This document shows, in pieces, positions 32,267-34,257 of a stretch of DNA of 64,000 nucleotides. Below the pieces are notes generated by a model. It was not told the origin of the DNA. It worked only from the letters and a program-made list of their open reading frames with translations, and made no database searches. The stretch covers positions 72,513 to 136,512 of the forward strand of contig JAXGRK010000001.1 in assembly GCA_040765985.1 (NCBI GenBank), in the 5' to 3' direction. Numbering within the stretch: position 1 is the stretch's first letter; the number at the start of each line of letters is the position of its first letter. The stretch comes from Candidatus Dojkabacteria bacterium. Lineage in GTDB: Bacteria > Patescibacteriota > Dojkabacteria > SC72. The position numbers were made by a program, and so were the translations under genes.

Positions 32267-33066
32267 ATGTTAAAAAATCTATCAATACAATACAGTGCAT
32301 TGATTGTGTAGAAGGTATGAGAAAGTTGCCTGAAAACTCTATAGACCTTGTGGTAACATCCCCTCCTTATGACAGTATAAGAGATTATAAGGGATATACT
32401 TTTGATTTACATGCTACTGGAGAAGAGATATTTCGAGTATTAAAAGATGGAGGGATTGCTGTAATGGTAATTCAAGATCAAACACGTGATTTTGGAAAAT
32501 CATTAACATCATTTAAGAAAATCGTTGATTGGGTAGATAATATTGGTTTTAAATTATTTGAAACAGTAATATACAGAAAATATGGTACTGAAGGTGCTTG
32601 GTGGAAATATCGATTTAGAGTAGATCATGAATATATGCCAATTTTCATTAAGGGCAAGAAGCCATTATATTTTAACAAAGAACCACTAAAGATCCCTTCA
32701 AAACATGGAGGCAAAGTTATGACAGGCAGTGGAAATCGAAAAACTAATGGAGAAACAACTCAAACTGTAAAAAGAGCAATAAATGTTACTAAGTGTAGGG
32801 GAACTATTTGGGACTATTTGAATGCGGGAGATAAAGATGATTTAAAAAGAAAACATCCTGCTGTTTTTCCCGATAAAATTCCCTATGATTTTATTCAATG
32901 TTTTTGTCCTCCTGAAGGTATTGTACTAGACCCCTTTATTGGTAGCGGTTCAACTGCTGTAGCAGCAATCCAACTTAATAGAAAATATATTGGCTTCGAA
33001 ATTTCCCAAGAATATTGTGAGTTGGCTGAAGAGAGAATTCGCAGAACCCAACTAACTATGTTATAA
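32267..33066 (+). CDS. beta-class DNA methyltransferase (SPPY motif, N4-cytosine or N6-adenine); start displaced by an indel in an A6 run
   Basis: Motif IV DLVVTSPPY precedes motif I LDPFIGSGSTAVAA (beta permutation). ATG at 32267 joins the ORF frame if the A-run at 32272-32277 changes by 1 nt (MLKKSINTIQCIDCVEGMRKLP). Confidence 0.85.
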
Positions 33067-34077
33067 CATTTTATCAGGATATTCCAAAGTATACTCTATG
33101 TTATCCCCACTTGTCATAGCCCAAGTAACTGGCATTTTAGAGATAAATTCTTCGAAATTAAGATTATTCAACCTCTTTCTATCCCCTTTAAAATCCTTCT
33201 TTGTAAATTTATATAAATTCAGGTTACTCCAAGACCAACTACTATCCAAATAATCCCAACTTGTTAATCCCCCTAGCAGCTTCAAAAATTGAATTATCCT
33301 CTCAACTGCAGCTGATTCTATATCATATGTCTCCCCCTTTTTAATAATATTTGCCGGTTCCCCATTGGTCTCAGAGATTCTCAACCTATCTCCCCTTTCC
33401 CTCGCAATACTAATTTCATCCCTTTGTCTAAAAAAGTCATCCATAGATTTCATTAGTTTGATTACAGTATACTTCTCGTTCTCAAAAATATTTTTCAAAG
33501 GACTACCTTCCTCATCTGCCCTTAAATAATGGAACCAGTTTAGTACATTTTCGGGATACTTAAATAAAACATTAAAAGTACCATCTGTAAAAAGTAACGG
33601 ACAAATAGCAGTCTCAGGAATATCTAACGCAAATTTTGATCCAACAATTCCTAATAGCAAATGGATTGTTGCTAAAGGATATTTTAATCTAAAATCATTG
33701 TATCCGTCGTAGTTACGAAGATTATTTGGTTGTATACAATTTTGATAATTATCCCAATCTTCTAGCCGTTTTCTTTTATTAAACTGAACCATATGGTGAC
33801 CAACACTCTTAATATGTTTTCTAAAAACTTCCATATCTAAAAAAATACAATCTGAAGGCAGATATCCTTCCTCTAATAGCATGACCTTACCATCATAAAA
33901 TCCTTTAATGTTCCAACCCAAAACATTTGACATAAACAAACCACAAAGCAATCCATCACTATCTGGGCTAAGAATACAATTGTGGTCTCTCTCAATTATC
34001 CAAGGATAATCATTTACGATTTTTTTATAATCAATTACATCTATTTTATCTTTTAAAAGGTCCTGAATCTTTGACAT
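33061..34077 (-). CDS. hypothetical protein convergent with the methyltransferase; candidate restriction/effector partner with DHH-like motif order
   Basis: 338-aa intact ORF overlapping the MTase 3' end by 6 nt. Motifs SPDSDG (res 37-42), IFLD (78-81), GHH (93-95) occur in the order of DHH phosphoesterase motifs I-III. No recognised REase family. Confidence 0.35.
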   Translation of the reverse strand: MSKIQDLLKDKIDVIDYKKIVNDYPWIIERDHNCILSPDSDGLLCGLFMSNVLGWNIKGFYDGKVMLLEEGYLPSDCIFLDMEVFRKHIKSVGHHMVQFNKRKRLEDWDNYQNCIQPNNLRNYDGYNDFRLKYPLATIHLLLGIVGSKFALDIPETAICPLLFTDGTFNVLFKYPENVLNWFHYLRADEEGSPLKNIFENEKYTVIKLMKSMDDFFRQRDEISIARERGDRLRISETNGEPANIIKKGETYDIESAAVERIIQFLKLLGGLTSWDYLDSSWSWSNLNLYKFTKKDFKGDRKRLNNLNFEEFISKMPVTWAMTSGDNIEYTLEYPDKML

Positions 34078-34167
34078 CTATTTATTCTAAAAAAACAACT
34101 TATACCTTAAATAATTTTTATAACATCCAAAATAATCAGAGTTGATCTGGTCCGAATAACAAACAAC

Positions 34168-34257
34168 TGGCGGAGAGGGTGGGATTCGAACCCACGGTAC
34201 GGAAACCCGTACAACGGTTTTCAAGACCGTCACATTCGACCACTCTGTCACCTCTCC
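34168..34257 (-). tRNA. tRNA-Ser (anticodon UGA), CCA encoded
   Basis: Acceptor GGAGAGG/CCTCTCC, anticodon stem ACGGT/ACCGT with loop CTTGAAA, long variable arm GTACGG-GTTT-CCGTAC, T arm GTGGG-TTCGAAT-CCCAC, 3' GCCA. Confidence 0.9.

Follow-up and report, generated by a model that had tools for sequence, protein, structure and literature searches.

Restriction enzymes are recognised through homology with nuclease families that have already been described. In restriction-modification (R-M) pairs the methyltransferase (M) gene is usually better conserved than the endonuclease (R) gene, and on entry of a system into a new cell, controller (C) proteins postpone expression of the toxic endonuclease. 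We know of no DHH protein that acts as a sequence-specific endonuclease on double-stranded DNA or as a component of an R-M system. Here we analysed a gene pair in a stretch of 64,000 nucleotides (nt) from a Candidatus Dojkabacteria bacterium (assembly GCA_040765985.1, contig JAXGRK010000001.1, positions 72,513 to 136,512 of the forward strand), which we refer to as the window. The pair consists of a DNA methyltransferase gene and a convergent gene for a protein of 338 amino acids (aa), the partner, and an earlier reading of the sequence (the original prediction) had proposed an atypical R-M or defence pair. The pair is very likely a Type II R-M system with the 338 aa protein as its endonuclease, because relatives carry controller genes before the partner gene, methyltransferases fused to LexA-type domains and a fusion of both proteins (P0338), and because the two genes are linked across genomes. 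The organisation is that of an ordinary Type II system, and the endonuclease family is unrecognised, widespread and possibly DHH-like.

A methyltransferase gene overlaps a convergent partner gene

The modification methyltransferase is encoded at 32267..33066 on the plus strand, and the intact open reading frame (ORF) in the window spans 32317..33066 (249 aa). Its product carries VVTSPPY toward the N-terminus and LDPFIGSGST toward the C-terminus. Motif IV precedes motif I, which is the order of the beta class and was read by the original prediction from TSPPY and DPFIGSGST. The Pfam model N6_N4_Mtase (PF01555) covers the protein over its full length (3.9e-41). An SPPY motif N-terminal to an FxGxG-type motif I, together with this full-length match, identifies a beta-class N6/N4 enzyme. 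The PADLOC models MTase_II and oMTase match at 1e-46 to 1e-47, and 2873 homologs were found at E ≤ 1e-20. Both the catalytic motif and the S-adenosylmethionine motif are intact, as in the methyltransferase of a Type II system, with a slip at the 5′ end of the gene (see below) as a caveat.

The partner gene lies at 33061..34077 on the minus strand and shares exactly 6 nt (33061-33066) with the end of the methyltransferase gene, in agreement with the overlap noted earlier. We predict that it encodes a Type II restriction endonuclease of an unannotated family; the prediction draws on homologs, conservation, an AlphaFold2 model, linkage to the methyltransferase, controllers in relatives and the fusion P0338. 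Homologs support both genes as real, and a tRNA-Ser gene adjoins them as had been described; however, the methyltransferase start that was given then, ATG 32267, is out of frame with the ORF in the window.

The two genes are linked across Bacteria and Archaea

For each GTDB species one genome was scanned for the partner protein; 227 relatives came up, and 80 loci were kept. Two contigs from an exact look-up were added, giving 82 loci, 81 of them non-redundant. A methyltransferase ortholog (52-80% identity, mostly 67-80%) directly adjoins the partner gene in all 81 foreign loci, so that the pairing of the second gene with the methyltransferase is strict even between unrelated genomes, as in a Type II R-M system. 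The hosts sampled include Patescibacteria, DPANN archaea, Methanobrevibacter, Planctomycetota, Bacteroidota, Ignavibacteriota, Clostridia, Elusimicrobia, Chloroflexi and others. With the window included, 62 pairs are convergent and usually overlap by 4-9 nt, while in the other 20 the genes stand in tandem with the methyltransferase gene first (M-to-R) and mostly overlap slightly. The loci have no flanking gene family in common, and therefore the two-gene unit moves on its own. Its distribution is patchy and crosses the border between Bacteria and Archaea at 50-72% identity. Across the loci the methyltransferase is consistently more conserved than the partner. The co-occurrence across genomes that had been suggested as a check on the pairing was thus found in every foreign locus.

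Controllers and fusions in relatives mark the partner as the probable R gene

In 33 convergent loci the partner gene is directly preceded, on its own strand, by an HTH_3 ORF of 70-90 aa that abuts or overlaps its start (281-502 in locus L004, 3777-3998 in L005, 3789-4001 in L082, and 30 other loci). For the one HTH_3 ORF that was checked, the closest proteins in the PDB are C.AhdI (3.2e-18) and C.BclI (2.7e-16), followed by C.Esp1396I. The position of these controller genes before the partner gene therefore marks the downstream gene as R. The controller proteins fall into two sequence subtypes, 'SIYSK...QSYISKIE' and 'HRTYIGMIERAEKNITL'.

Some of the methyltransferases, including that of the closest relative (L003), bear an N-terminal LexA-type winged helix (1.4e-19), and P0338 (623 aa) is a single-chain fusion of an N6_N4_Mtase domain and a partner-family domain. 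Relatives thus show what is expected around a Type II system, a controller before R or a helix-turn-helix (HTH) domain fused to M; the window copy has no controller gene, no HTH fusion to the methyltransferase and no M-to-R operon. Two gene orders, fusions and controllers, together with the strict adjacency, bear out the R-M pairing that had been proposed. The word 'atypical' has to be dropped, since convergent M and R genes with overlapping ends, accompanied by C-R operons in relatives, are a textbook arrangement for Type II systems.

Further size variants were seen among the methyltransferase orthologs, such as P0161, P0186, P0178 and P0146 (383-429 aa) and ORFs of 480-514 aa in L005, L006, L010 and other loci. 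Many orthologs are extended at the N-terminus by 140-190 aa or more that match nothing in Pfam, others carry the LexA-type domain, and some of the long ORFs may be over-extended calls.

In a Type II system of this kind the methyltransferase would mark a short sequence in the host genome, and the 338 aa protein would cut the same sequence when it is unmethylated, as in incoming phage or plasmid DNA; it would also make loss of the module lethal. The module is mobile and self-contained, and horizontal transfer has carried it through Bacteria and Archaea. Its relatives delay expression of the endonuclease in three ways typical of Type II systems, namely by a C protein before R, by a DNA-binding domain fused to M, or by an M-to-R operon. 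The analysis shows the linkage of the genes, their mobility, the regulatory architecture and the identity of the methyltransferase, whereas cleavage, its dependence on metal, the target and the methylated base are predictions.

The partner belongs to a large family with an invariant Asp/His cluster

At E ≤ 1e-3 the partner has 934 homologs, of which the top 120 are full-length, 57-72% identical and 'hypothetical' where they are named; the best homologs come from Patescibacteria, DPANN archaea, Methanobacterium, Methanobrevibacter and a metagenome-assembled genome labelled 'Planctomycetes'. When 1.84 billion cluster representatives were searched with a profile, the family was found in 522 clusters at 50% identity. 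No relatives were found in annotated plasmids and phages (tblastn) or in IMG/VR viral contigs, and literature searches yielded no relevant DHH-type restriction enzyme and no earlier description of the family.

Conservation was computed over 49-62 members with identities down to about 20%. Diverged members retain residues ~12-200 and a short C-terminal motif, and the middle varies. In a 49-sequence alignment D41, G59, D81, S91, G93, H95, K132, P134 and W181 are invariant, and D39, G42, Y61, N118, Y133, H139, D165, Y174 and N177 are at least 90% conserved. An N-terminal alpha/beta domain (~1-200) bears D39-x-D41-G, D81-x-E83, G93-H-H95, N118, K132-Y-P134, D165 and N177. A second, more variable alpha/beta domain (~205-338) is presumed to be the DNA-recognition part. 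One family member, P0287 (459 aa), has an additional C-terminal extension of about 130 aa.

The AlphaFold2 model of the partner, built with 38 homologs, is confident, with a pLDDT of 92.6 and a pTM of 0.92. In its N-terminal part a strand (33-36) leads into D39-x-D41 and is followed by a helix (40-53). Further strands are formed by residues 56-61, 65-69, 77-80 (into D81) and 90-92 (into H94-H95), and a helical region extends to ~200; the second part of the model is the C-terminal alpha/beta domain. Catalysis would be a metal-ion-dependent hydrolysis of phosphodiester bonds, and the candidate site comprises the cluster D39, D41, D81, E/D83, H95 and D165, with K132, N118 and N177. By analogy with general Rossmann-like topology, these residues would be expected at the C-terminal ends of the strands. 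The candidate site resembles the two-metal site of DHH/RecJ proteins, a likeness that does not prove homology.

The start of the methyltransferase gene and its modified base

Just after ATG 32267 the window has a run of six A residues (32272-32277, plus strand), where three contigs (L084-L086) that are 98.3-99.3% identical have seven. Compared with these near-identical strains one base is missing, which shifts the frame of the first 17 codons. The A7 version of the gene yields a product of 266 aa, the usual length in the family, that starts with MLKKSINTIQCIDCVEGM; the orthologs are 266-269 aa long with the N-terminus MLKK.INTIQCIDCVEGM. Judged from this comparison, the biological start is probably ATG 32267, as originally predicted, and the protein 266 aa long.

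A cca-like gene nearby (29094-30510, minus strand), whose product resembles CCA-adding enzymes and poly(A) polymerases and includes an HD domain, is present as three ORFs, its frame being broken by 1-nt slips at two short homopolymers, one near 30335 and the other near 29935. Indel errors may thus be systematic in this assembly. Because these two further homopolymer slips break the cca-like gene, we read the A6 slip in the methyltransferase gene as most likely an assembly error as well. The alternatives are an N-truncated methyltransferase that starts at M18, or a slippery or phase-variable tract.

SPPY is typical of N4-cytosine enzymes, and from this motif the modified base is probably N4-methylcytosine.

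Weighing the assignment and the fold of the predicted endonuclease

A number of observations weigh against an R-M system in which the 338 aa protein is the endonuclease. We infer the nuclease activity of this protein from genomic context alone. It has no match in Pfam, NCBIfam, PADLOC or PHROGs and hence no recognised nuclease domain, and comparison with PDB sequences, by the single protein, a close profile or a broad profile, gave chance matches or none. Structure comparison with Foldseek gave nothing better than E 0.1 for the full model in the PDB and nothing that passes E 0.001 in BFVD, and the separately predicted N-domain (pLDDT 83) has no significant neighbour in the PDB. For the methyltransferase, the top PADLOC model is labelled 'orphan' (oMTase), and the 5′ frame is broken in the window, which, if real, would be hard to square with an active endonuclease. 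Its best solved relative, M.BceJIV (~1.3-1.6e-17, before rotifer N4CMT with 5e-16 and M.PvuII with 3e-11), is an N6-adenine enzyme, so that homology leaves the modified base undecided. The target site is also only hinted at. Among 4-mer palindromes, GATC shows the strongest depletion in the window (120 observed versus 256 expected, ratio 0.47) and the second strongest in the pooled host flanks of L001-L082 (ratio 0.56). Low values extend to ACGT, CCGG and CATG in the window and to CTAG and GGCC in the pooled hosts. Depletion of CTAG and GATC is common. The GATC depletion, seen in host genomes only, could reflect this or other R-M systems, and we take it as a lead that assigns no site.

The partner falls into none of the recognised nuclease superfamilies, PD-(D/E)XK, HNH, GIY-YIG, PLD or half-pipe, by sequence libraries, PDB or Foldseek at E ≤ 0.001, which upholds the earlier statement that it matches no recognised restriction-enzyme family. 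Membership of such a superfamily is usual for a Type II endonuclease and not defining. A relationship to DHH/RecJ-type phosphoesterases had been proposed instead, from SPDSDG (37-42), IFLD (78-81) and GHH (93-95), which are present as described (S37-P-D39-S-D41-G42, I78-F-L-D81, G93-H94-H95). Their key positions are conserved throughout the family in DHH order, with D41, D81 and H95 invariant and D39 and D165 conserved in at least 90%. Motif III is G-(H/N/Q)-H in the family and not DHH, the Asp being replaced by Gly and the first His varying. Around ten DHH-family proteins are among the top 30 matches in BFVD, all of them sub-threshold with TM-scores of 0.16-0.32: RecJ at ranks 1 and 11 (best E 0.025), 'DHH family phosphohydrolase' at ranks 5, 8, 10, 27 and 30, a phosphohydrolase at 12, exopolyphosphatases at 16 and 19, and NrnB at 23. 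In the N-domain search of the PDB, phosphoribosyltransferases came out on top (about 90 aligned columns), the DHH protein PggH ranked 7 (E 0.29, TMq 0.27), a 563-residue CMG chain at rank 12 is probably Cdc45 by its length, and a PAP phosphatase, which we take to be of the DHH type, was at rank 26. Taken together, the Foldseek matches to DHH proteins have E values of 0.025-1 and TM-scores of 0.2-0.32 at most.

Formal tests of the DHH proposal were all non-significant. The Pfam DHH model (PF01368) does not match the window protein at E ≤ 1 or at E ≤ 10; it matches one of 49 family members with E 0.072, and the source of this match is not among the ten members checked. No resident DHH protein was found in the window or in the loci, and as comparator a five-sequence RecJ/GAN profile was made from E. 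coli RecJ and RecJ/GAN fragments from the PDB. With hhalign the family reached a score of 17.8 against these five DHH domains (P ~0.1), which 6 of 100 column shuffles also reach, and RecJ alone gave noise level. The alignment path is colinear and partly reproduces the register with RecJ (D39-x-D41-G with DADG, D81 with the Asp of motif II, NPN with the (N/H)P after DHH). Neither GGGH nor GGH of DHHA1 occurs in the 338 aa sequence or the consensus, as judged by reading and not by a pattern scan. The ordered motifs and the DHH proteins among the best sub-threshold matches thus keep the proposal alive, and the statistics do not carry it. In our reading DHH is the nearest known fold, a reasonable hypothesis that we treat as a lead only. 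That the family is the first Type II endonuclease built on a DHH/RecJ-like, Rossmann-type two-metal phosphoesterase domain is conceivable but doubtful.

A different origin of the nuclease would leave the Type II assignment as it is. The endonuclease could be an extremely diverged member of a known fold, either PD-(D/E)XK or a His-Me/HNH finger formed by G93-H95...N118. PD-(D/E)XK enzymes are notoriously hard to detect by sequence, and close homologs of the partner show P38-D39...D62-G-K64 and D81-x-E83 patterns; for the His-Me finger, G-H95 is followed about 23 residues on by N118 at a helix start, which may loosely resemble the DRGH...N of Serratia-type His-Me nucleases. A conserved D...(D/E)xK triad on a beta-meander, as in PD-(D/E)XK nucleases, is not seen. 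The sole DxK, D62-G-K64, is lost in diverged members, D62 and K64 not being conserved across the wider family, and D39 and D62 are separated by a helix and not by a hairpin, in a strand-helix-strand layout that is Rossmann-like. For these two reasons the PD-(D/E)XK reading is disfavoured. Moreover, no restriction enzyme or HNH protein is among the best matches listed in the three Foldseek searches, and we regard a diverged known fold of either kind as unlikely.

Two further explanations would abandon the endonuclease. DHH phosphoesterases, to which the sole structural hints point, mostly act on single-stranded DNA, nanoRNA or nucleotides, and the partner could be a nanoRNase or a cyclic-nucleotide phosphodiesterase in a non-classical, methyltransferase-linked defence or toxin system. 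It could also be a base-excising glycosylase in such a system; here restriction glycosylases set a precedent, since they show that an R gene can encode something other than a phosphodiesterase (PMC10273834). However, controllers of the C.AhdI/C.BclI type, methyltransferase-HTH fusions and an M-R fusion are hallmarks of a second gene that attacks unmethylated DNA, a DNA methyltransferase protects solely against a DNA-directed activity, and the invariant Asp/His cluster suggests metal-dependent hydrolysis over glycosylase chemistry. A partner that is not a DNA endonuclease thus appears very unlikely to us. There is next to no chance that the methyltransferase is an orphan and the 338 aa gene an unrelated neighbour, brought there by chance or by tRNA-associated island traffic: the oMTase label and the missing nuclease annotation of the partner would fit, but the adjacency in 81 of 81 foreign loci, in varied contexts and two orientations, and the fusions contradict it. 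A Type II R-M system with the 338 aa protein as endonuclease accounts best for these data.

Surroundings of the pair

The tRNA-Ser(UGA) gene (34168..34257, minus strand; ARAGORN) faces the start of the endonuclease gene with its 3′ end, 90 nt away. It is a neighbour of the pair and not demonstrably part of the module. Among the 81 relatives, about 11 have a tRNA gene no more than ~1.2 kb from the module (L006, L028, L038, L054, L057, L059, L060, L061, L062, L074 and L077). These tRNAs are of several kinds (Gln, Ser, Leu, Gly, Arg and Asp) with differing anticodons, and enrichment of tRNA genes near the module is at most modest. No att-like duplicate of the tRNA 3′ end was found around the pair in the window. 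With so few tRNA neighbours of such varied identity and no such repeat, the argument that the pair sits at a tRNA hotspot for accessory DNA is weak.

A perfect 12-bp palindrome, ATGTTATAACAT (33058..33069), covers the convergent gene ends, where the two stop codons share TTATAA and both proteins end in ML-stop. Because the C-termini differ in homologs, we read this palindrome as probably a coincidence of sequence. The base composition of the pair is not distinct from that of its flanks, and scans for promoters and terminators at the pair gave results no better than shuffles. Just beyond the tRNA gene, four genes at 34304-38627 (plus strand) encode proteins of 415, 375, 317 and 296 aa with N-terminal hydrophobic segments, rich in Thr, Ser and Gly. 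They have the look of an operon for secreted or surface proteins, with no evident link to R-M.

Significance of the family

An R family that every library misses leads to such systems being miscounted as orphan methyltransferases. This matters most in bacteria of the Candidate Phyla Radiation (CPR) and in DPANN archaea, groups considered to be poor in defence systems, and the family is large (see above). If the family derives from DHH/RecJ or has a new fold, it would add to the short list of chemistries for sequence-specific DNA cleavage. If it is DHH-like, this would be a further catalytic fold beside PD-(D/E)XK, HNH, GIY-YIG, PLD and half-pipe, already spread in Patescibacteria (CPR), DPANN archaea, methanogens, Bacteroidota and many other lineages and invisible to defence annotation. 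The family, for which one search gave 934 homologs and another 522 clusters, could then also supply new specificities as reagents. Its conserved N-terminal domain and variable C-terminal part suggest a split between catalysis and recognition that may be open to engineering.

Comparison with known systems

C-protein-controlled Type IIP systems of the PvuII, BamHI, AhdI, BclI and Esp1396I types likewise combine a beta-class N4/N6 methyltransferase gene with a convergent R gene whose tail overlaps that of the M gene. Relatives of the window pair also share with them a C.AhdI/C.BclI-like gene that abuts R, and further likenesses are the horizontal mobility and the better conservation of the M gene. 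In contrast to these systems, the window copy lacks a C gene, and its R protein shows neither a signature of PD-(D/E)XK, HNH, GIY-YIG, PLD or half-pipe nuclease nor any significant structural neighbour.

With the DHH/DHHA1 phosphoesterases (RecJ, NrnA/NrnB, GdpP/PggH, Cdc45/GAN) the partner shares the order of motifs, DxDG after the first strand, then D behind a later strand, (G)HH and a further D. The spacing is D39/41-D81-H94/95-D165 in the partner and D24/26-D80-H104/105-D156 in B. subtilis NrnA. An N-P motif follows HH as in RecJ, and the predicted build of two alpha/beta domains is a further likeness. It differs from them in lacking helices between the core strands, in the Gly that replaces the Asp of DHH, and in TM-scores that do not exceed 0.32.

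The methyltransferase shares its fold and motif order with the enzymes of the M.BceJIV, M.PvuII and N4CMT types. M.BceJIV is an orphan N6-adenine enzyme with DPPY, whereas the enzyme in the window carries SPPY and is accompanied by a dedicated partner.

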